A DNA stretch of 64,000 bases from Anaerohalosphaeraceae bacterium (GTDB lineage: Bacteria; Planctomycetota; Phycisphaerae; Sedimentisphaerales; Anaerohalosphaeraceae). The translations under genes and the position numbers were made by a program. Location: the NCBI GenBank assembly GCA_050309605.1, contig JBNRMN010000033.1:64001-128000 (forward strand), written 5' to 3'. Position 1 is the first letter of the stretch, and the number at the start of each line of letters is the position of its first letter. Below, in pieces: positions 5,512 through 14,711 of this stretch. The notes under the pieces are model-generated. The model was given only the letters and a program-made list of their open reading frames with translations, ran no database searches and was not told the DNA's origin.

Positions 5512-8082
5512 ATGAAAATCCCGACTGCAACCTACCGGCTTCAGTTTCACGCAGAGTTTACCTTTCGCGATGCGCGGGCGATCCTGGATTATCTGCATCG
5601 GCTGGGGATCAGTGATATGTACGCCTCGCCGATATTCCAGGCGGTCCAGGGCAGTACGCACGGGTATGATGTCGCCGATCCGAATCGGTTCAATCCCGAA
5701 CTGGGCGGTCGGGACGATTTTGACGCCCTCAGCCGCGAAAGACAGCGGTTCGGCCTGGGCTGGCTGCAGGACATCGTGCCCAACCATACGGCTTTTTCTC
5801 CGGAAAACGCCATGCTGATGGATGTCCTGGAGAAACGCGAAGACAGCGTCTTTTATCGTTTTTTTGATATTGACTGGGACGATCCCGATCCCTCATTGAA
5901 GGGCAAGGTCTTGATTCCGATTCTCGGCTCGCCTCTGGACGAGGTACTTGATGCCGGTGAGCTGACGCTGACGACTCAAGACGGCAGGCCGATGCTGTGT
6001 TACTATGATCATTGCTTTCCTTTGAACGCCGCCTCGGCTCGGCAATTTGACTCGATGAGCGATGCCGATCTGGCCCAGTACCCACAGGGCGCCGAGGGCA
6101 AGGCGCGGATGAAAGCGCTGCTGGATAAACAATATTATGTGATGGACTTTTGGAAAAACGCCAATGAACGCATCAACTATCGCCGTTTTTTTTACATTAA
6201 CGACTTGATTTCCATGCGCGTTGAGGATGAGGCGGTGATGGACGCGACGCATCGGCTCATCATCGAGCAGGTACGCCGCGGGCATTTTACCGGCCTGCGG
6301 ATAGATCATATCGACGGCCTGTACGATCCCGGCCACTATCTGGAGCGTCTTCGAGAGGCGTGTCCGGAGGCGTACATCGTTGCCGAAAAGATTCTCGAAC
6401 ACGATGAGCCGCTGTGCGAAAAATGGCCGATTGAGGGAACGACCGGCTATGACTTTGGGGCGCAGGTCAATGCGCTGTTCTGTAACCGGGACAATCGGTC
6501 GGCATTTTTGGAAGGTTACCAAACGTTTATCGGCCAAGACATCGACTACGAGCGGCTGCTGTATGACAATAAACGCCTGATTCTGAAAAAATATATGGCC
6601 GCCGACCTGCGCCGGCTGATGCGCTGTGTACGGCGGCTGCTGGATACAACGGCCGATGATGACCGGCTTGAAGCGGCGATGAGCGCTTTTGTCGCGTCCT
6701 TTCCGGTCTATCGCAGTTATTTTGACGGCAGGGAATTTGGCGCATTTGATCGGCGGTGCATCCGTCAGGCCATCCAAACGGCTGTGCGTTTTGAACCGAA
6801 ACTGACCCGACAAATCCAAACCCTGACGACGCTGCTGCCGCTGTCCGGCGAGGCATCGAAGCCCATCGACGCGGCGACGGCGGCTTTTGTCGGACGATTG
6901 CAGCAGTTGACCGGCCCGGTCATGGCCAAAGGCTTTGAAGATACGCTGCTGTACATTTTTTACCCGTTGGCCTCGCTGAATGAAGTCGGCGGCGCGCCGG
7001 TTATGTTCGGACTGAGCGAAGCGGAGTTTTACGGTTTTATTCAGAACCGTCAAACGCGCTGGCCGCATGCGATGAACGCCACCGCCACCCACGACACCAA
7101 ACGCGGCGAGGATGTTCGCGCCCGGCTGAACGTGCTGTCCGAAATGCCGGATGCGTGGTTTGAGAAGGTCAATCAGTGGAGCCGAATCAATGAACACTGC
7201 AAAACCAGACACGAAGGACAGCTTATCCCCGACCGCAACGATGAATATCTGATCTATCAAACGCTGCTGGGCGCAAAGCCGTTTGAGGAGGGGCTTTCAG
7301 CGGCATTTCTGGAGCGTGTCAAGGCCTATACGGTCAAGGCACTGCGTGAAAGCCAGCGGCATACGACCTGGGTCGAGCCGAACGAGGCGTACGAACAGGC
7401 TGCGACCGCGTTTATCGACCGAATTGCTGCCGAGAATACGGATTTTATCGCATCGTTTGAGCCGTTCTGTAAGCGGATTGCCGAGTATGGCATCATCAAT
7501 TCTCTTTCGCAGACGCTGCTGAAGATGACCGCGCCGGGCGTGTGCGACTTTTATCAGGGCAGCGAATTATGGGAACTGAGTCTGGTCGATCCGGACAATC
7601 GCCGACCGGTCGATTATGCGCAGCGCAGTGCAATGCTCGATACCCTCATCCGCGACAGCCGACACAGCCGCACGGCACTGCTCAACAACCTGATTGAGAC
7701 GCGCACCCGGGGCGGGATTAAAATGTTTTTAATCCATACGATTCTTCAACAGCGAAAAGCATTTCCGGAATTGTTTTTGCAGGGCGCGTTTGTGCCGCTG
7801 CAAATTCAGGGGCGCCGCCGTCAGCACATACTGGCGTTTGCCCGCTGTTTTGCGGATCGCTGCGCTGTGACCGTTGTGCCGCGGTTTGTCAGCACACTGG
7901 CCGAGCCGGACGTACTACCTTTGGGGGACGCCGTCTGGGGCGATACGCGCATTTGTCTGCCGAACGATTTCCCGACCCGATGGAACAACCCCGTGACCGA
8001 CGAATCGGTTGCCGCCAAAGACAGCCTTTCGGTCGGACAAATCCTGAATACGTTTCCGGTGGCGTTTTTAACAGCGTCATAA
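5512..8082 (+). CDS. treY: Malto-oligosyltrehalose synthase (GH13)
   Basis: PTATYRLQF, GSTHGYDV, DIVPNH, GLRIDHIDGL, ATHDTKRGEDVRAR, LVDPDNRRPVDY. Confidence 0.96.
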   Translation: MKIPTATYRLQFHAEFTFRDARAILDYLHRLGISDMYASPIFQAVQGSTHGYDVADPNRFNPELGGRDDFDALSRERQRFGLGWLQDIVPNHTAFSPENAMLMDVLEKREDSVFYRFFDIDWDDPDPSLKGKVLIPILGSPLDEVLDAGELTLTTQDGRPMLCYYDHCFPLNAASARQFDSMSDADLAQYPQGAEGKARMKALLDKQYYVMDFWKNANERINYRRFFYINDLISMRVEDEAVMDATHRLIIEQVRRGHFTGLRIDHIDGLYDPGHYLERLREACPEAYIVAEKILEHDEPLCEKWPIEGTTGYDFGAQVNALFCNRDNRSAFLEGYQTFIGQDIDYERLLYDNKRLILKKYMAADLRRLMRCVRRLLDTTADDDRLEAAMSAFVASFPVYRSYFDGREFGAFDRRCIRQAIQTAVRFEPKLTRQIQTLTTLLPLSGEASKPIDAATAAFVGRLQQLTGPVMAKGFEDTLLYIFYPLASLNEVGGAPVMFGLSEAEFYGFIQNRQTRWPHAMNATATHDTKRGEDVRARLNVLSEMPDAWFEKVNQWSRINEHCKTRHEGQLIPDRNDEYLIYQTLLGAKPFEEGLSAAFLERVKAYTVKALRESQRHTTWVEPNEAYEQAATAFIDRIAAENTDFIASFEPFCKRIAEYGIINSLSQTLLKMTAPGVCDFYQGSELWELSLVDPDNRRPVDYAQRSAMLDTLIRDSRHSRTALLNNLIETRTRGGIKMFLIHTILQQRKAFPELFLQGAFVPLQIQGRRRQHILAFARCFADRCAVTVVPRFVSTLAEPDVLPLGDAVWGDTRICLPNDFPTRWNNPVTDESVAAKDSLSVGQILNTFPVAFLTAS

Positions 8083-8087
8083 GAAAA

Positions 8088-8116
8088 ATGGGACAGGTCG
8101 ATTCAACCTGTCCCAT
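8088..8116. terminator. Perfect 11-bp hairpin between convergent treY and leuB (terminator or REP-like palindrome)
   Basis: ATGGGACAGGT-cgattca-ACCTGTCCCAT with an A-run on the left, i.e. a U-tail on the minus strand. Confidence 0.7.
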
Positions 8117-8155
8117 GATTTGAAGAGTTGTTTTTCTGACTTCCGGTTGGTGTTG

Positions 8156-9241
8156 TTATTCGGCAACTTTTTGGGCGACCAGATCGCCGACTTCGCTGGT
8201 GGTGTAGCCCATTTTTCCGGCGGCCAGGGATTTGAGTTTGTTGCCGGTGACCCAGCGGACGGCCTGTTCGACCGCATCGGCCGCGGCGTCTTGGCCGAGT
8301 GTCTGGAGCATCATCGCCATCGCGCAGACGGCCGCCAGCGGATTGATCACGCCCATGCCGGTGTACTTGGGGGCGCTGCCGCCGATGGGTTCAAACATCG
8401 AGACGCCTTCCGGATTGATGTTGCCGCCGGCGGCGATGCCCATGCCGCCCTGGGTGATCGCGCCCAGGTCGGTGATGATGTCGCCGAACATATTGCCGGT
8501 GACCAGCACGTCGAACCATTCCGGGCTTTTGACCATCCACATACACGTCGCATCGACGTGGTAATAATCGCGTCGGATGTCGGGGTAATCTTTTTCGCCC
8601 ATCTCGTGAAAGGCGCGCTCCCACAGGTCATAGATATAGGTCAGCACGTTGGTTTTGCCGACCAGGCCGAGGGTGTTTTCTTTGCCCACGCCGCGGGCCT
8701 TCTTGCCGTATTTTCGGGTGTATTCGAAGGCGTACTTCAGACAGCGATCCACCTGGAAGCGGTTATAGACGGCGCTTTGCACCGCCACTTCCTGCGGCGT
8801 GCCCTTCATCGTAAAGCCGCCCGCCCCGCAGTAGGCGTCGCCGGTGTTTTCACGCACCACGACATAATCAATCTCGGCCGGGCCTTTGTCCTTCAGCGGC
8901 GTTTCCACGCCGGGAAACAGCCGCACCGGACGCAGGTTGATGTATTGATCCATCTCAAACCGCATCCGCAGCAACAGCCCTTTTTCGAGGATGCCGGGTT
9001 TGACGTCGGGATGGCCGATCGCGCCGAGCAAAATCGCGTCGTGCTGTTTGAGATCCTCGACCGCACCGTCCGGCAAAATCTCGCCGGTGCGTTTGTACCG
9101 CTCGCCGCCAAAGTCAAAGTCGGTCTTTTCGACCTTAAACCCGAACTTGGCCGCCACCGCATCCATTACTTTTACTGCTTCAACAGTTACTTCCGGCCCC
9201 GTGCCGTCGCCGCCGATAATCGCAATCTTATACGTCTTCAT
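8156..9241 (-). CDS. leuB: 3-isopropylmalate dehydrogenase
   Basis: GGDGTGPEV, NLRPVRL, VVRENT, NMFGDIITDL, FEPIGGSAP; leu operon context. Confidence 0.93.
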   Translation of the reverse strand: MKTYKIAIIGGDGTGPEVTVEAVKVMDAVAAKFGFKVEKTDFDFGGERYKRTGEILPDGAVEDLKQHDAILLGAIGHPDVKPGILEKGLLLRMRFEMDQYINLRPVRLFPGVETPLKDKGPAEIDYVVVRENTGDAYCGAGGFTMKGTPQEVAVQSAVYNRFQVDRCLKYAFEYTRKYGKKARGVGKENTLGLVGKTNVLTYIYDLWERAFHEMGEKDYPDIRRDYYHVDATCMWMVKSPEWFDVLVTGNMFGDIITDLGAITQGGMGIAAGGNINPEGVSMFEPIGGSAPKYTGMGVINPLAAVCAMAMMLQTLGQDAAADAVEQAVRWVTGNKLKSLAAGKMGYTTSEVGDLVAQKVAE

Positions 9242-9284
9242 TACTTTGCTATCCTTTCATAAGTGGTTGTTTCAATATTTTCTT

Positions 9285-9301
9285 AAGTAAAAAGGTAAAA
9301 T
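9285..9301. repeat. 3' inverted-repeat arm of four-helix-bundle cassette 1
   Basis: AAGTAAAAAGGTAAAAT on +, complementary on the mRNA to the arm at 9672-9703. Confidence 0.6.
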
Positions 9302-9672
9302 TACCGCTTTCCTTTGCATCTCAGGTTACTCGAAGCCAGTATTTTTGAAATTTCATCCAATTCGCTCAAAAACCATGCGGTTTTTTGCGGCGTTGAGCGC
9401 TTACTGTCGCGCAGCAGAGCCATCCACATTTTGCTTTCGTTGGCGGATTTGAGCGAAATTGACGAAAAATTTGTAAATTCTTTTTTGCTGCTTGCAGACT
9501 GCCCTTCGACATAATTGGCCAGAATGCTGCTGCCGCTTCGAAAAAGCTGGTCGCTGATGCGTCTGGAAATACTGTCATCGGGAAGCCCATCAAGAAACTC
9601 AATCAATTTCAAAATAAAACGGTAAAGTCGTTTCTTGAGGGCAGCAACAAACTTTTCCTTTTCACCTGTCAT
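9301..9672 (-). CDS. Four-helix bundle protein 1 (23S rRNA-IVS protein/TIGR02436-like), 123 aa, between leuD and leuB
   Basis: MTGEKEKF...DQLFRSGSSILANYVEGQSASSKKEF...LKSANESKMW fits the QL.RS..SI.AN..E family signature. It is the C-terminal half of ORF 9301..10014; ATG at 9672. Confidence 0.88.
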   Translation of the reverse strand: MTGEKEKFVAALKKRLYRFILKLIEFLDGLPDDSISRRISDQLFRSGSSILANYVEGQSASSKKEFTNFSSISLKSANESKMWMALLRDSKRSTPQKTAWFLSELDEISKILASSNLRCKGKR

Positions 9673-9703
9673 TTTGCCCTTTTCCCTTTTACTTTTGCCT
9701 TTT
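9672..9703. repeat. 5' arm of cassette 1: AAAAGG(C/G)-type ~7-bp units overlapping the leuD stop
   Basis: Minus strand reads AAAAGGC AAAAGT AAAAGGG AAAAGGG CAAA-ATG. Confidence 0.7.
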
Positions 9704-10171
9704 GATATGTTCCAGCAGTCCGTCGTCGTTGACGATTTCGAGGGCAAAGTCCGGCAGCGGGGTAAAGGCGATGGTCGTCCCCTGCGTCTTGTTGGCAATC
9801 GTGCCGCCTTTGTAGTCGATTTCCAGCTCGTCACCGTCGTTGATCTTGTCCAGTGCCCCGTGCAGCTCGATGGGGTAAAAGCCGCAGTTGATGCAGTTGC
9901 GGTAAAAGATGCGGGCAAACGACTGGGCGATGACGGCGCCGACCTGTGCGCCCTGAATCGCCCAGACGGCGTGCTCGCGGCTGGAGCCGCAGCCGAAATC
10001 ATCCCCGCAGACAATCACATCGCCGGGCTGAACCTTCTTGACAAACCCGGTATCCAGGTCTTCCATACAGTGCTTTGCCAGCTCGGCCGCATCGTCCGAA
10101 TTCAAATACCGCGCCGGGATGATCTCGTCCGTATTGACGTGATCCCGCTTGTACACATGTGCTTTTGCCAT
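9689..10171 (-). CDS. leuD: 3-isopropylmalate dehydratase small subunit
   Basis: DHVNTDEIIPARYL, FGCGSSREHA, SFARIFYRNCIN. Confidence 0.96.
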   Translation of the reverse strand: MAKAHVYKRDHVNTDEIIPARYLNSDDAAELAKHCMEDLDTGFVKKVQPGDVIVCGDDFGCGSSREHAVWAIQGAQVGAVIAQSFARIFYRNCINCGFYPIELHGALDKINDGDELEIDYKGGTIANKTQGTTIAFTPLPDFALEIVNDDGLLEHIKRQK

Positions 10172-10191
10172 AAAATCTCCGATTTTTTATG

Positions 10192-10236
10192 AAATTCGAA
10201 TCTCGAATTTCGAAATACGAAACAAATTCAAATTTC
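10192..10236. repeat. 3' inverted-repeat arm of cassette 2 (CGAA-containing heptamers)
   Basis: AAATTCGAATCTCGAATTTCGAAATACGAAACAAATTCAAATTTC; 37/45 identical by hand alignment to the reverse complement of 10617-10661. Confidence 0.85.
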
Positions 10237-10258
10237 AAAGTATTCCAATTTTCGAAAC

Positions 10259-10621
10259 TTATTCACTCTTTCGAAGGATTGCTCCGAAAATATTCATCAG
10301 CTCCGTTGCCTCTGTTATCAATAAACTACATTCGTGAATCGCCGCATCATCAACAATATGTAACAATCTGAGCCAGTACCTGGACTCCTTGGCCTCTTTC
10401 CGGCAGATTTTAATTCGCATCAGAAAATCTTTCTTGCTCAACGCCTCATTGGCCTCAATGTAATTGGCTCCGACCGAACCTGAAGCTCGGACCAACTGCT
10501 TAATGTCTTCGATATTTGCGATATCTTTGGCAATAGTCCTGACAAAATCTCGAACTCTTTTGGCAAACTGATAAGTCCGTTCTTCCAAGTCATAGTGTTT
10601 TGTTTTTTTGTATTCGGACAT
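10259..10621 (-). CDS. Four-helix bundle protein 2, 120 aa, between leuC and leuD
   Basis: YDLEERTYQFAKRV...KQLVRASGSVGANYIEANEALSKKDF..RIKICRKEAKESRYWL. Confidence 0.92.
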   Translation of the reverse strand: MSEYKKTKHYDLEERTYQFAKRVRDFVRTIAKDIANIEDIKQLVRASGSVGANYIEANEALSKKDFLMRIKICRKEAKESRYWLRLLHIVDDAAIHECSLLITEATELMNIFGAILRKSE

Positions 10622-10661
10622 TAGAATTTGTTTCGGATTTCGAGATTCGGATTTCGAGTTT
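10617..10661. repeat. 5' inverted-repeat arm of cassette 2
   Basis: Minus strand AAACTCGAAATCCGAATCTCGAAATCCGAAACAAATTCTAATGTC; includes the ATG of the cassette gene. Confidence 0.85.
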
Positions 10662-10663
10662 AT

Positions 10664-11926
10664 CTATAGGTAGTTTCTGCAGTCGGCCAGTTTGCCTTCG
10701 ACGGCTGACGCCGCGGCTGTGGCGGGGTTGGCCAGATAGACTTCCGATTTCGGGCTTCCCATGCGTCCGACGAAGTTGCGGTTGGTCGTGCTGATGCACT
10801 TTTCGCCGGCGGCCAGGATGCCCATAAAACCGCCCAGGCACGCCCCGCAGGTCGGCGCACTGATGACGCAGCCGGCGTCATAGAAAATCTCGGCCAGCCC
10901 TTCATCGACCATCTGTTTCCAGACAACCGGTGTGGCCGGCACAACAATCGTGCGAATCGCGACCTGTTTGCCCTTCAAAATCGATGCGGCCACCCGCAGA
11001 TCCTCGATTCGTCCGTTGGTGCAGCTTCCGATATAGCACTGATCCATCGCCAATCCCGCACACAGACTGATCGGCTGGCCGTTGCTGGGCAGATGCGGCA
11101 GCGCGACCATCGGTTCCAGCGCCGAACAGTCAATCGTGTCTTTGTGTACATACTCGGCGTCGGTGTCGGACTCAAAGACGGTATATTCGCTTTTGTCCTT
11201 GAGCCGTCCGTCCAGATAGGCCCGGGTCGTGTCATCGACGCCGATGATGCCGTTTTTGCCGCCGGCCTCAATGGCCATATTCGTGATGGTCATCCGCGCT
11301 TCCATCGACATTTCCTTCAGCGCCGGACCGACGAACTCCATCGCCTTGTACAGCGCCCCGTCGGTGCCGATTCGCCGAATAACCTCCAGCATCACATCCT
11401 TGCTGTACACGCCCGTCGGCAGCGAGCCGGTCAGTGTAAACTTCATCGAGGCCGGGACCTTGAACCACAAAATCCCCGTCGCAATCGCCGCGGCCAGATC
11501 CGTCGAGCCGATGCCCGTCGAGAACGCCCCGAACGCCCCATACGTACAGGTGTGGCTGTCGCCGCCGACGATGACCTCGCCGGGGCGGATGTGTCCCTGT
11601 TCGGGCAGCAGGGCGTGGCAGACGCCGGCGCGGCCGAGCTTGTAATAATGGGTGATCTTTTTTTCTTTGGCCCAGGTATCCAGCCGCTTGTGCAGCTCGG
11701 CGCTTTTGATGTCCTTGGGCGGCTGAAAATGATCCGGAGTGACGACAATTTTGTCCCGGTCGAACACCCTGTCGATGCCGTGCGCTTTGAGCATCGAAAT
11801 CGCCGGCGGCGTCGTTACGTCGTGGCACATCACCAGATCAATCTTTGCATTGACCAGATCGCCTGCCTGAACCGACGGCTTGCCCGCCGCCCGGGCGAAA
11901 ATCTTTTCCGTTATTGTCATTGCCAT
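10664..11926 (-). CDS. leuC: 3-isopropylmalate dehydratase large subunit
   Basis: [53 protein letters not shown]. Confidence 0.97.
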
Positions 11927-11930
11927 AAGA

Positions 11931-11979
11931 AAATCCTAAATTCTAAGCACTAAATATTAAACAAATTCAAAAAACAAAA
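11931..11979. repeat. 3' inverted-repeat arm of cassette 3 (TAAA/TAAG heptamers)
   Basis: AAATCCT AAATTCT AAGCACT AAATATT AAACAAA TTCAAAAAACAAAA; 38/49 identical by hand alignment to the reverse complement of 12361-12409. Confidence 0.85.
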
Positions 11980-11998
11980 ATTCAAAACATAAAAACAA

Positions 11999-12358
11999 TT
12001 ATTGACTGTTGCGGAGCATGGCCGCAAAAATATAGACCAATTCTTCCGATTCTTTTTTCAACGCCGCTTGCCTTTGTTCCAACGACTCATTTGAAGTCTC
12101 CAAAAGCTCCAGCCAATACGCACTTTCTTTAGCTTCTTTTTTACATATCTTAACACGCATCATAAAATCTTTTTTGCTCAACGCATTGTTAGCCTCAATA
12201 TAATTGGCGCCCACCGACCCGCTGGAACGAACAAGCTGTTTGATATCATCATAAGCCGCAAAATCTTTCGGAAACCCGTGTACAAACTCCCGAACAGCCT
12301 TTGCAAATTTCAAAGTCCGCTCTTCAAGGTCATACGTTTTCGAGTTTTCTGCTTTCAA
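11999..12358 (-). CDS. Four-helix bundle protein 3, ~119 aa, between leuA and leuC
   Basis: YDLEERTLKFAKAV...KQLVRSSGSVGANYIEANNALSKKDF..RVKICKKEAKESAYWL; TTG start uncertain. Confidence 0.9.
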   Translation of the reverse strand: MKAENSKTYDLEERTLKFAKAVREFVHGFPKDFAAYDDIKQLVRSSGSVGANYIEANNALSKKDFMMRVKICKKEAKESAYWLELLETSNESLEQRQAALKKESEELVYIFAAMLRNSQ

Positions 12359-12360
12359 CT

Positions 12361-12409
12361 TTTTCTTTTCTAAATTTGTTTAGAATTTAATGCTTATGAT
12401 TTAGTGCTT
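12361..12409. repeat. 5' inverted-repeat arm of cassette 3
   Basis: Minus strand AAGCACT AAATCAT AAGCATT AAATTCT AAACAAA TTTAGAAAAGAAAA, starting 6 nt after the leuA stop. Confidence 0.85.
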
Positions 12410-12415
12410 CCTCCG

Positions 12416-13969
12416 CTACAGCGGCGCTTTTTCGCTGTGATTGGTCCCGACACACGCCGCGATGCGGTTGATGGCATCCAGGTAGGCCTTTGCGCTGGCT
12501 TCGACGATGTCGGTCGAAGCGCCGCGTCCGATATAGGTGCGTCCGTTGGCGTCTTTAATCCGCACGGTCGCTTCGCCCATGGCCTCTTTGCCGCCGGTGA
12601 TTGCGCGCATGGAGTAGTTCTCCAGTTCCGGTTTTTGGCCTGTCGCCAGACGAATCGCCTCATAAGCCGCATCCACCGGGCCGTCGCCGCAGGCCGCGGC
12701 CTGATGCACTTTACCGTCTTCGGTACGAATGCGCACTGTGCCGGTCGGAATCGTTCCCGTGCCGCTGGTGACGTTCAGATACTCCAGCACATATGTCTGC
12801 TCCACGGTGCGCACTTCGTCGTTGATGATCGCGGCGATGTCCTCGTCGAAAATCTCTTTCTTCTTGTCGGCGATCTCAAGAAATTTTTCGTAGGCCGTCT
12901 GGATTTCCGCTTCGCTGAGGTTGTACCCCAACTGTCGGCAGCGGTCGATAAAGCCGTGCCGCCCGGAATGCCGCCCCAGCACCATCCGTGAGCCGCTCAG
13001 GCCGATCATCTCCGGCGTCATAATTTCATACGTCTCGCGGTGTTTGAGGATGCCGTCCACGTGAATGCCCGATTCATGGGCAAAGGCGTTCTTGCCGACG
13101 ATGGCTTTGTTCGGCTGAATCACAAAGCCGGTCAACTGCGAGACGAGCTGACTGGTGCGGAAGATTTCCTGTGTCTTGATATTGGTCGTTACGTTGCCCT
13201 CAAAGAAATCATGGCGCGTATGAATCGCCATAACGACCTCTTCCATTGCCGCGTTGCCGGCCCGTTCACCGATACCGTTGATGGTGCACTCAATTTGACG
13301 GGCGCCGTTTCGCACGCCGGCCAGCGAGTTGGCGGTTGCCACCCCCAAATCATTATGACAATGCGTGCTGAGGACAGCCTTTTCGATGCCTTTGACGTTT
13401 TTTCTGAGATTGGCGATGATCTGCCCGTACTCATACGGCATAATATAGCCGACCGTGTCGGGAATATTCAGCGTTGTGGCCCCGGCCTCGATGACCGCCG
13501 ACAGGATTTCATACAAAAAGCTCATCTCACTGCGGCAGGCGTCCTCGGGCGAAAATTCCACATCATCGGTGTATTGCCGTGCCATCTGAATCGCCTCAAC
13601 CGCCATCTTCAGCACTTGGTCGGGGGCCTTTCGGAGCTTGTGCTTCATGTGGATGGGGCTTGTCGCAATAAATGTATGGATGCGTCGTTTGGCCGCCGAG
13701 GCCAGGGCCTTGCCCGCTGCGTCGATGTCTTTCTGGTTGGCTCGCGCCAGTCCGCAGATCACCGGTCCGTCCACCTGTTCGGCGCACAGCCGCGTCGCCT
13801 CAAACTGGGCCGGCGAGGAGACGGGAAATCCCGCCTCAATCACATCTACGCCCATTTTTGCCAATTGATGGGCGATTTCAATTTTTTCGCTGATTGACAA
13901 GGCCGCACCGGGCGACTGCTCGCCGTCCCGAAGCGTCGTATCAAAAATAATCACCTTTTCCGCTGACAT
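12416..13969 (-). CDS. leuA: 2-isopropylmalate synthase
   Basis: IFDTTLRDGEQSPG, HCHNDLG, NGIGERAGN, AFAHESGIH, C-terminal regulatory domain GDGPVDA; start 13969 or 13975. Confidence 0.97.
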   Translation of the reverse strand: MSAEKVIIFDTTLRDGEQSPGAALSISEKIEIAHQLAKMGVDVIEAGFPVSSPAQFEATRLCAEQVDGPVICGLARANQKDIDAAGKALASAAKRRIHTFIATSPIHMKHKLRKAPDQVLKMAVEAIQMARQYTDDVEFSPEDACRSEMSFLYEILSAVIEAGATTLNIPDTVGYIMPYEYGQIIANLRKNVKGIEKAVLSTHCHNDLGVATANSLAGVRNGARQIECTINGIGERAGNAAMEEVVMAIHTRHDFFEGNVTTNIKTQEIFRTSQLVSQLTGFVIQPNKAIVGKNAFAHESGIHVDGILKHRETYEIMTPEMIGLSGSRMVLGRHSGRHGFIDRCRQLGYNLSEAEIQTAYEKFLEIADKKKEIFDEDIAAIINDEVRTVEQTYVLEYLNVTSGTGTIPTGTVRIRTEDGKVHQAAACGDGPVDAAYEAIRLATGQKPELENYSMRAITGGKEAMGEATVRIKDANGRTYIGRGASTDIVEASAKAYLDAINRIAACVGTNHSEKAPL

Positions 13970-14711
13970 AGTCATTCTCCGATCATTTCAAAAGAAGCGG
14001 CTATTATGCACCAAATAGGCGCATATTTCCACTGGAAACTGAAAAAACGAGGGGGTCTGTGAGGTTATTTTGGGGAATTTATGCGCCGCAGGGGCGCAGA
14101 ATAATCCGACCGACCAAGTCGGTTTTTAGAGATGCACAAACTGTACGACCCTGCTTCATACCTCATAATCTATCGATAACTCCCCTCCATTGCAAGCAAA
14201 AAACGTTTTTTTTACGGCCGAGGTATGATACAACAGCTCGAATTGAGGCCTTGAAATGCCCTGCAAAAAAGCCATAATATCGGCATACTGCATTGTCATT
14301 CAATCTGCCTCTGTTCTTCTAAAAACAGGTAAACGGATTTCCCGACACACCGCCGAACACTTCCTGATGGGATACTTTCTTATCATTCGAAAACCGGGTT
14401 CGCCCAAGATGATTTCCAAAAGGGGTAAACCGGGTGAATTAGGCATTGGGGAGAATTTCAAAATTTTTTCGTAAATTTTGAAAATTTTAATTTTTCTCTT
14501 TGGCTGTATGGCGGGGTTTTTATTGGACGTAAGTCTGGTTTGCCGCGACGACTTCCTTTATGTAGTGTTTAAGCTTGTTGTGATTCATACATCTTGTAGC
14601 AAGCTCCGATTTTGCCGATAAAATCCGCGATTCAAGATTTTTGCGTCGGCTATCCGATATGCTTAGCGTTAACAAGGATGTGAAACGAACGCCGACAGGA
14701 GTTATCGTGGT

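Follow-up and report, generated by a model that had tools for sequence, protein, structure and literature searches.

Repeat-flanked genes of the four-helix-bundle family at every internal junction of a planctomycetal leucine operon

Introduction

Why should every internal junction of an otherwise ordinary leucine operon hold a small gene of one and the same family, enclosed by inverted repeats? The question is raised by a 64,000-nt stretch of DNA (positions 64,001 to 128,000 of contig JBNRMN010000033.1, assembly GCA_050309605.1; hereafter the window, from whose first letter positions are counted) from an Anaerohalosphaeraceae bacterium of the Planctomycetota. Three genes of the four-helix-bundle (FHB) family, FHB3, FHB2, and FHB1, lie between its leuA, leuC, leuD, and leuB genes. 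A first-pass annotation, made from the letters alone, had likened them to the intervening sequences (IVSs) of 23S rRNA and had proposed that they are IVS-like stem-loop cassettes in mRNA, serving either as selfish elements of operon junctions or as modules that process the operon transcript. Our analysis leads us to a reading to which we give a probability of about 60%: each insert is a widespread, promoterless IVS-type cassette residing in operon transcripts, which is inherited, lost, and exchanged as one unit.

We use “cassette” for an FHB open reading frame (ORF) together with its two arms of heptamer units. The present genome (3.4 Mb, 99.7% complete) is labeled G000, its congeners are G001 to G006, other G numbers are relatives in the same order, and L numbers are individual loci.

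Results

Three cassettes in an intact leu operon

The gene order leuA-FHB3-leuC-FHB2-leuD-FHB1-leuB on a single strand was confirmed, the strand being the minus strand (Table 1). In keeping with the first-pass annotation, no leu gene is broken: all four ORFs are full length and carry full sets of Pfam domains. The FHB genes are also AT-rich as described, with a GC content of 0.37 to 0.41 in the junctions versus about 0.56 to 0.65 in the leu genes. Each cassette is co-oriented with both neighbors and occupies the spacer, starting at the upstream stop and ending shortly ahead of the ribosome-binding region of the next leu gene; these ribosome-binding regions lie outside the stems. The 5′ arms start 0 to 6 nt from the upstream stop, in agreement with the first-pass annotation, and that of FHB1 overlaps the leuD stop. 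The last codons and the stop of leuD (9685-9694) are themselves heptamer units, and several other copies likewise have the upstream stop in their first unit. On the sense strand inside the leu cassettes, neither a sigma-70-like promoter nor an intrinsic-terminator-like site was found, which is weak evidence.

All three ORFs match PF05635 (E values of 1.7e-18 to 3e-13; 50 to 67 bits against a cut-off of 33.8) and TIGR02436 (69 to 80 bits against a cut-off of 24), which bears out their assignment to the IVS-type fold family. A profile built from four copies matches the solved chain 2rld_A (E = 3.8e-25), whose entry has five chains, and by this homology the leu FHB protein is predicted to be a four-helix bundle that forms a pentamer. 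FHB2 and FHB3 are 60% identical, while FHB1 shares 30 to 33% with either; the three genes thus represent separate lineages and not a recent local triplication.

Contigs from an independent biogas-fermenter run extend across FHB2 and FHB3 plus their flanks with zero differences, and these two cassettes are therefore not assembly artifacts. In run X8, an independent metagenome, contigs break off at 9244 and resume at 9685, exactly at the two borders of cassette 1. Strain heterogeneity may be the cause, but a gap in coverage proves nothing. Joints in run X9 that skip the FHB2 ORF were rejected, since their sides measure 22 to 34 nt and their depth is far above that of the organism; their probable source is other loci or organisms that have arrays of this kind.

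Complementary arms of heptamer units

The inverted repeats that had been aligned by hand as 37/45 around FHB2 and 38/49 around FHB3 were recovered over 45 and 61 nt, respectively (Table 1). Under one scoring scheme, with 200 shuffles of the 3′ flank as a control, the flanks of FHB3 score 57 (shuffle maximum, 30) and those of FHB2 score 51 (shuffle maximum, 22). A repeat of about 13/17 proposed for FHB1 does exist, as 15 nt with 87% complementarity, but it does not rise above chance in G000 alone. Three related FHB1-type copies (those of G006 and G003 and a G005 paralog) have a longer 3′ arm, and the weakness of the FHB1 arms in G000 is explained by the loss of 34 nt there.

The genome contains seven PF05635 matches, each of them co-oriented between same-strand genes, and every one of the seven cassettes has its own heptamer in inverted arrays. 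Five score above all 200 shuffles, and in the five with arms long enough to test, the best autocorrelation period is 7. By duplex energy, the 5′ flank pairs best with its own 3′ flank in 7/7 rows, clearly so in five. The three leu cassettes obey the rule that the A-rich arm is always 5′, as do six of the seven copies in the genome as a whole; the copy between lemA and the M48 peptidase gene is reversed, with its T-rich arm 5′.

When the cassettes were folded in silico, as the first-pass annotation had suggested, both minimum-free-energy and centroid RNA structures paired the 5′ arm with the 3′ arm in all three, including an 11-bp outer stem in that of FHB1. Whole-cassette folds gave z = −5.6 for FHB3, with 0/100 shuffles as good, −1.5 for FHB2, and −1.7 for FHB1. 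Both arms could be typed in 50 of 87 cassettes examined, and the 5′ and 3′ unit types match in 49 of them (25 CGA/TCG and 24 CTA/TAG, with 1 discordant). Complementarity thus survives switches of the unit.

Between G000 and G003, dN/dS is 0.10 for FHB3, 0.05 for FHB1, and 0.05 for leuD. The FHB3 arm regions of the two genomes are identical at 51/57 (89%, 5′) and 58/71 (82%, 3′) positions, compared with 62 to 65% at third codon positions of FHB3, FHB1, leuC, leuD, and leuB. Intact FHB ORFs and their arms are under purifying selection within the genus. Since dS is similar in FHB3 (0.99), FHB1 (1.15), and leuD (0.85), divergence of the FHB3 and FHB1 cassettes within the genus has gone hand in hand with that of their host genes.

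Table 1. Features of the leu operon and loci of the second cargo in G000 (window positions, except where a contig label is given)
Feature	Position	Strand	Details
leuA, 2-isopropylmalate synthase, intact	12416..13975	-	HMGL-like, HCS_D2, and LeuA_dimer domains; end-to-end alignment with relatives
Cassette 3, entire leuA-leuC junction	11927..12415	-	489 nt, GC 0.37
Cassette 3, 5′ arm, A-rich, heptamer units ending CTA	12344..12404	-	Inverted repeat of 61 nt, 75% complementary; best period 7
FHB3 ORF, 119 aa, TTG start	11999..12358	-	PF05635 E 9e-15; TIGR02436 E 1.7e-20
Cassette 3, 3′ arm, T-rich	11936..11996	-	Same inverted repeat as 5′ arm; best period 7
leuC, intact	10664..11926	-	Aconitase domain
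Cassette 2, entire leuC-leuD junction	10172..10663	-	492 nt, GC 0.38
Cassette 2, 5′ arm, heptamer units ending CGA	10617..10661	-	Inverted repeat of 45 nt, 82% complementary; best period 7
FHB2 ORF, 120 aa	10259..10621	-	PF05635 E 3e-13; TIGR02436 E 4e-19
Cassette 2, 3′ arm	10192..10236	-	Partner of the 45-nt inverted repeat
leuD, intact; final codons and stop inside cassette 1 heptamer array	9689..10171	-	Aconitase_C domain
Cassette 1, entire leuD-leuB junction	9242..9688	-	447 nt, GC 0.41
Cassette 1, 5′ arm, purine-rich heptamer array around leuD stop	9680..9694	-	Inverted repeat of 15 nt, 87%
Cassette 1 array (TRF)	9672-9704	-	Period 7, 4.7 copies
FHB1 ORF, 123 aa, different subfamily	9301..9672	-	PF05635 E 1.7e-18; TIGR02436 E 1e-22; coordinates use the ATG start, a longer TTG frame also exists
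Cassette 1, 3′ arm, truncated in G000	9285..9299	-	15-nt inverted repeat; 34-nt deletion versus G006, G003, and G005 paralog
leuB, intact	8156..9241	-	Iso_dh domain
GxxExxY locus L137	C21:10281-13610
GxxExxY locus L138	C59:16589-19936
GxxExxY locus L139	C82:9397-12531

Beside the operon, a plus-strand ORF of 856 aa (5512-8082), convergent with leuB, looks by eye like a maltooligosyl-trehalose synthase gene.

Turnover at the leu junctions of relatives

Alignment of the leu operons of relatives, the check proposed by the first-pass annotation, revealed filled, scarred, empty, and swapped junctions. Across 21 relatives and G000, leu junctions measure 23 to 2,705 nt. Clean, cassette-free spacers of 23 to 52 nt occur in other genomes, and in close relatives leuC-leuD spacers of 29 to 52 nt are found. 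Orthologs of leu FHB cassettes are present in four congeners, and the states of the three junctions within the genus are listed in Table 2. Outside the genus, CTA-type leuC-leuD cassettes were found in G014, G027, and G030 and a CGA-type one in G009. From the protein tree we used the group of FHB3 with its G003 ortholog and L058 (support, 99) and, with caution, that of the CTA-type leuC-leuD cassettes (support, 88).

Table 2. State of the leu junctions in congeners (percentages are protein identities)
Genome	leuA-leuC	leuC-leuD	leuD-leuB
G003	FHB3 ortholog, 85%	117-nt hairpin with a different unit and no ORF; residue of the former 3′ arm	FHB1 ortholog, 89%
G006	Outside contig	Different protein, 65% identical, CTA-type arms	FHB1 ortholog, 94%
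G002	Unrelated 171-nt hairpin	Frameshifted FHB2, CGA-type arms	171-nt remnant
G001	49 nt resembling T-rich arm	40-nt one-arm scar, matching the distal 3′ arm plus ribosome-binding region of FHB2	Internally deleted FHB1
G005 (L041, C194)	Outside contig	Outside contig	898 nt; nucleotidyltransferase/HepT (MNT-HEPN type) pair, then ORF-less hairpin of 7-8-nt units

In the leuD-leuB junction of G003 (L040, C20), the 5′ arm and the start of FHB1 are duplicated around an insert of about 300 nt with a small hydrophobic ORF. Alignments of the relatives' junctions showed neither a target duplication nor a conserved end motif at the cassette ends. The number of PF05635 matches ranges from 0 to 11 among 31 relatives of the same order; six genomes have none, and three of these six are 99% complete. 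Within the genus there are 7, 1, 1, 11, 6, 5, and 8, which are matches and not exact copy numbers.

The leuC-leuD junction also records an exchange of alleles. G000 and G006 are 95 to 100% identical through leuC, but identity falls to 78% from about 80 nt before its stop, runs at 47 to 82% through the cassette, and stands at 80 to 93% over the first 160 nt of leuD. In fixed segments, identity is 0.98 in the 300 nt of leuC just upstream of its last 81 nt and 0.81 in those last 81 nt, which is no closer than to other congeners, followed by 0.88 in the first 150 nt of leuD and 0.91 in its other segment. The swap thus brought flanking host DNA with it, which points to homologous recombination with a diverged donor and not to precise transposition.

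Reoccupied junctions and a copy at a new site

When 28 cassettes of six congeners were mapped onto G000, 20 had both flanks on one G000 contig, representing 11 junctions. Two of these are the sites of G000 cassettes, at LemA-M48 and T2SSE-T2SSF. The other nine are, in G000, clean spacers of 34, 29, and 10 nt in three cases; two hold remnants of the same arm type, and one holds another gene plus an arm remnant. The remaining three contain a different repeat element: one a solo array and one a hairpin without an ORF, each built of another unit, and the third a CGA-type cassette that has lost its ORF, at a junction where G004 carries a cassette with unrelated arms. At T2SSE-T2SSF, a cassette is present in six of the seven genus genomes searched, with two protein alleles and at least three kinds of arm. 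Such repeated occupation of the same junctions looks non-random, although the estimate (114 arrays against about three thousand junctions) is a rough one.

Copying to a new site is illustrated by G005, where FHB1 has been lost from leuD-leuB and an FHB1-type cassette occupies a second junction, one that in G000 is a spacer of 10 nt. This copy and the leu FHB1 copies share about 70% identity over both arms and the ORF, and the homology stops at the outer ends of the arms, from which we infer that the moving unit is the gene together with its arms.

Copies outside the leu operon, solitary arrays, and a second cargo

The first-pass annotation had asked that all PF05635 genes of the genome be checked, and periodic inverted flanks as well as co-orientation within operons were indeed found outside leu. 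The four other G000 copies lie between the genes for LemA and the M48 peptidase, a sugar transferase and a pyridoxal phosphate (PLP) decarboxylase, T2SSE and T2SSF, and FAD synthetase and a DHH phosphoesterase. Three of these four are degenerate, two with an in-frame TGA and one as a fragment.

Tandem arrays detected with TRF in G000 are dominated by period 7 (114 arrays of at least 2.9 copies; for other periods, 2 of period 5, 18 of period 6, 6 of period 8, 35 of period 9, and 7 of period 10). Most period-7 arrays are solitary, 70/114 lie outside rough ORFs, and their units belong to the same families as those of the cassette arms. They mostly fill stop-to-start spacers of same-strand genes, and in the window they occur only at 9672-9704 and 10631-10658. 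Among solo arrays in same-strand junctions, 28/47 have a purine-rich sense strand and 5 a pyrimidine-rich one, a lead only, as the rough longest-ORF map misorients at least one known locus. An ungapped search for inverted partners (at least 18/21) of period-7/8 arrays yielded 6/120; its criteria were too stringent for the result to be informative.

GxxExxY/PDDEXK_3 (PF13366, TIGR04256) forms a second type of small cargo. It is present at three G000 junctions (Table 1) as well as in leu junctions of G015 (L056), G020 (L047), G028 (L046), and G029 (L055), and its arms, built of 8-10-nt units, are analogous to those of the cassettes. The GxxExxY genes lie between same-strand genes, and in L138 and G020 the arrays look direct, not inverted.

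As to enzymes, G000 has an RNase III gene and no match to reverse transcriptase (RVT_1, PF00078), and PADLOC returned no match for four FHB copies. Matches to Y1_Tnp occur in 28/31 genomes of the order, with two in G000. Both Y1 transposase-like genes of G000 (C63:12700-13750 and C90:77500-78400) have GC-rich palindromes in the REP/RAYT style and adjoining heptamer arrays.

The same packaging in many phyla

A pattern scan of one genome per species gave at least 599 confirmed relatives, of which the best 79 loci, with proteins 51 to 64% identical to FHB3, were analyzed. They come from Planctomycetota, Verrucomicrobiota, Patescibacteria, Chloroflexota, Bacteroidota, several proteobacterial groups, and others. 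With 600 sampled G000 genes as the control, 66/79 loci have a flank inverted-repeat score above the 99th percentile (23), and 70/79 have one above the 95th. Of the 66, 56 have 7 as their best period, and A exceeds T in the 5′ arm in 65. Neighbor strands are ++ at 52 loci, +- at 13, -+ at 5, and -- at 1, with 8 undetermined.

The neighbors, for which 142 of 150 frames were scanned (8 were dropped by a size limit), are typically two subunits or steps of one system, such as livH/livM-type permeases, xanthine-dehydrogenase-family subunits, NADH dehydrogenase subunits, HlyD/AcrB, T2SSF/pseudopilin, or a PAPS reductase-family protein and a GTPase. Leu genes stand beside the cassette at five loci. 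In L058, L060, L062, L067, and L076, from metagenome-assembled genomes labeled Pirellulales and Tichowtungia, the closest relatives of FHB3 and FHB2 adjoin leuC, leuD, or leuB, and the leu operon thus appears to be a recurrent home of this subfamily. Rfam searches found no rRNA in window positions 8000-14500 nor in the 20 of these 79 loci that have unannotated neighbors. L061 carries two PF05635 genes in tandem, one immediately after the other, and in L101 the cassette is closely followed on its downstream side by a tRNA-Sec gene.

Discussion

A probable promoterless cassette of operon transcripts

The proposal of IVS-like cassettes in mRNA has gained support from the stem-ORF-stem units of IVS size (447 to 492 bp), the IVS-type protein, and the intact state of the leu genes and their ribosome-binding regions. 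How the cassettes would work can be sketched as follows. Each would be transcribed by read-through within the operon, and its arms would pair into a long stem enclosing the FHB gene. By analogy with ORF-bearing 23S rRNA IVSs, RNase III might cut this stem, which would free a small mRNA and divide the operon transcript into cistrons, each still with a ribosome-binding site of its own. The FHB protein, a likely pentamer by homology, may act on the nucleic acid of its own cassette. Loss occurs by deletions that start in the arrays and leave one arm behind, while spread between lineages would proceed largely by recombination through conserved neighboring genes, with occasional copying to new junctions.

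Several results weigh against this interpretation or fail to lend it the support that it might expect. The flank score of FHB1 in G000 (20) is within chance, the shuffle maximum being 22, and the whole-cassette z scores of FHB2 and FHB1 are weak. A wobble test over 70/87 cassettes and 3,539 positions counted 140 G·U versus 160 A·C mismatches in the stems (p = 0.27); without an excess of G·U over A·C, there is no pointer to pairing as RNA rather than DNA. Two RNA-labeled runs, one of which is probably DNA, covered 6 to 11% of sampled words in short contigs and provided no transcript evidence. A cross-locus control, in which the own 5′ flank was compared with the 3′ flanks of other loci, placed the own pair above the 99th percentile in 6/79 loci and was set aside as uninformative; it failed because the arms of this subfamily are homologous between loci and across phyla, a finding that itself shows the arms to travel with the gene. 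In the protein tree, a quick one, 9/82 inner branches are well supported. No enzyme was identified for the first insertion or for mobilization, and G023 (95% complete) has three PF05635 matches and zero Y1_Tnp matches. The leuC-leuD cassette is found in at least three families of the order, with a dN of 0.17 to 0.21 in CTA-type copies against 0.19 to 0.27 in leuD for the same genome pairs, and the strong selection on ORF and arms would equally suit a role beneficial to the host.

The last two points also bear on the alternatives that the first-pass annotation had offered. Its selfish element of operon junctions is favored by the turnover and by the presence of one cassette type at two junctions, and, in a purely selfish form, partly disfavored by the purifying selection, by the occurrence of the leuC-leuD cassette in several families, and by a dN like that of leuD. 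Fixation at these junctions across distant relatives, together with a lack of periodic inverted flanks in FHB genes elsewhere, had been named as findings that would speak against cassettes; the distribution of the leuC-leuD cassette touches on the former, while such flanks are indeed found elsewhere.

DNA-level mobility, host function, and other explanations

The stem may act as RNA or as DNA. A real possibility, if one to which we give clearly less credence, is that the arms form hairpins in single-stranded or cruciform DNA and are recognized in trans by a Y1/RAYT-like transposase or the PD-(D/E)XK GxxExxY protein, the FHB protein being cargo or a DNA-binding accessory; this would be compatible with cassettes that reside in transcripts. 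The neutral wobble test leaves room for it, and Y1_Tnp genes are common in the order, G000 included. ORF-less hairpins of the same kinds of unit occupy the same junctions in relatives, the unrelated PF13366/TIGR04256 cargo with analogous periodic arms occurs both in G000 and in leu junctions of four relatives, and different elements recur at one junction in three of the nine examined as well as at leuC-leuD and T2SSE-T2SSF. On the other hand, a purely DNA-level element does not predict the orientation bias with respect to transcription (52 ++ versus 1 --), the G023 genome combines PF05635 matches with a lack of Y1_Tnp, and neither a target duplication nor a conserved end motif was seen.

A host-serving operon module is a more doubtful explanation. 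The stem and its protein would then be kept because they determine how stable the leu cistrons are relative to one another, or how well each is translated, for example through cleavage of the polycistron or protection of 3′ ends, and the patchy distribution would reflect lineage-specific need. The low dN/dS of the FHB genes (0.05 to 0.10), arms more conserved than third codon positions, the free ribosome-binding regions downstream, and the wide retention of the leuC-leuD and T2SSE-T2SSF cassettes in the order and the genus, respectively, all fit such a role. Effects of palindromic elements in operon junctions on mRNA are also known; Correia elements bind RNase III and are cut or protected by it (PMC2649163). 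Close relatives, however, manage with leuC-leuD spacers of 29 to 52 nt or with one-arm scars, three of the seven G000 copies are truncated or interrupted by a stop, a single junction can hold alleles with different proteins and heptamers within the genus, and the same cassette types occur in unrelated operons across phyla. The broken copies and the many bare junctions of relatives make it doubtful that the leu operon requires the cassettes for its regulation, and the notion of a fixed regulatory module is not supported. The cassettes may nonetheless benefit the host, given the long retention and the strong constraint.

It is very improbable that the FHB protein is the Avd protein of a diversity-generating retroelement (DGR) or part of a defense system: PF05635 is related to bAvd, and one relative's junction copy also matches PF22296 (5e-11), but the nearly complete G000 genome has no RVT_1 match, PADLOC found nothing for the four copies, and all neighbors are housekeeping genes. 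Chance similarity of AT-rich spacers or an assembly artifact can practically be dismissed, although the arms of FHB1 and of the copy FHBb are at the level of shuffled flanks, since five of the seven cassettes beat all shuffles, 66 of the best 79 loci exceed the control threshold, orthologs exist in four congeners, and the identical contigs from an independent study already refute an artifact for FHB2 and FHB3.

Returning to the cassette of operon transcripts, it is tempting to extend it into a bolder, frankly speculative scheme that we consider rather unlikely. The cassette might be a transposase-free replicator, whose pentameric, Avd-like protein would recognize the heptamer stem of its own element, as RNA or as hairpin DNA, and would help the cassette to be copied into stop-to-start spacers of conserved operons or to be kept there. 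Arrays and hairpins already in place would flag junctions for reoccupation, and the roughly 100 solo arrays would belong to the system. Were this true, the repeated replacement of alleles at the same junctions would be explained, and a single class of element would stand behind 23S rRNA IVSs, “four helix bundle” proteins, and the heptamer repeats of intergenic spacers.

Whichever view prevails, the locus holds three cassette lineages in one well-understood single-copy operon, for which congeners supply filled, scarred, empty, and swapped states. It should be a tractable system for RNase III cutting of a long mRNA stem, for the ligand of the protein, and for entry into junctions without a recognizable transposase. 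PF05635/TIGR02436 is a large family. The cassettes bear on the origin and spread of rRNA IVSs, and they link FHB genes to intergenic heptamer arrays that have been described separately.

Comparison with known systems

Integron cassettes contain a promoterless, co-oriented small ORF and an imperfect inverted repeat and depend on an upstream promoter; the repeat (attC) is at one end, an integrase is needed, and the cassettes stack at one attI site. The cassettes described here are likewise promoterless and combine a co-oriented ORF with an inverted repeat, but they are not limited to a repeat at one end. Avd, a pentameric protein that binds nucleic acids, belongs to a related four-helix-bundle family; unlike in DGRs, a reverse transcriptase and template/variable repeats are lacking here. 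Intergenic heptamer repeats include the STRR heptamers of cyanobacteria. A further case is that of the TAACTGA arrays in spacers of Beggiatoaceae, Cyanobacteria, and Bacteroidetes, which also consist of 7-nt units in tandem, occupy the spacer immediately before a start codon, and follow the orientation of the gene, but which are direct repeats of one unit and not inverted pairs of many different units around a gene (PMC4679880). The text of that study mentions neither “intervening sequence” nor “four helix,” and in the open-access literature of PMC and bioRxiv, the scope of our search, which left subscription journals outside, we found the cassette only as an rRNA IVS.

Correia elements of Neisseria share with the cassettes their inverted repeats beside genes; they are cotranscribed, form hairpins bound by RNase III, and change the expression of neighbors (PMC2649163, excerpts). 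They have no ORF and consist of one conserved repeat per genome in hundreds of copies, whereas each cassette has its own heptamer and a conserved gene. The cassettes also differ from elements of the MITE/Correia type in that they bear an ORF and show no duplication at their ends, although ORF-less hairpin derivatives exist in relatives. REPIN-RAYT systems, according to the excerpted accounts, similarly comprise a gene flanked by inverted palindromic repeats, ORF-less derivatives in spacers, and long vertical persistence (PMC3116915, PMC3337134). Their gene is a Y1 transposase with one palindrome, in contrast to tandem heptamers around a four-helix-bundle protein without a known catalytic fold; the cargo here is PF05635, and the Y1_Tnp genes of G000 lie elsewhere (C63 and C90).

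The closest parallel remains the rRNA IVS of Coxiella burnetii and Leptospira, which encodes a protein of the same family (S23p is PF05635), is of similar size, and has its ORF inside stem-forming terminal inverted repeats; in addition, it is lower in GC than its host, sporadic, and inherited both horizontally and vertically (PMC4990558, excerpts). In the same account, the Coxiella IVS (helix 45) measures 428 to 444 nt and has a 28-bp terminal stem in which RNase III cuts, and the S23p of Xanthomonas is a pentamer. Excision by RNase III has been demonstrated for the rRNA IVS and would, by analogy, apply to the leu cassettes. Arms made of 7-nt-unit arrays do not appear in the excerpted description of the rRNA IVS (PMC4990558), and its Coxiella ORF is reported to be decaying and evidently not synthesized in vivo, while the ORFs of the leu operon are under purifying selection. 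The rRNA IVS resides in an rRNA transcript, at helix 25 or 45; the cassettes described here are flanked by leu genes, in an mRNA operon.

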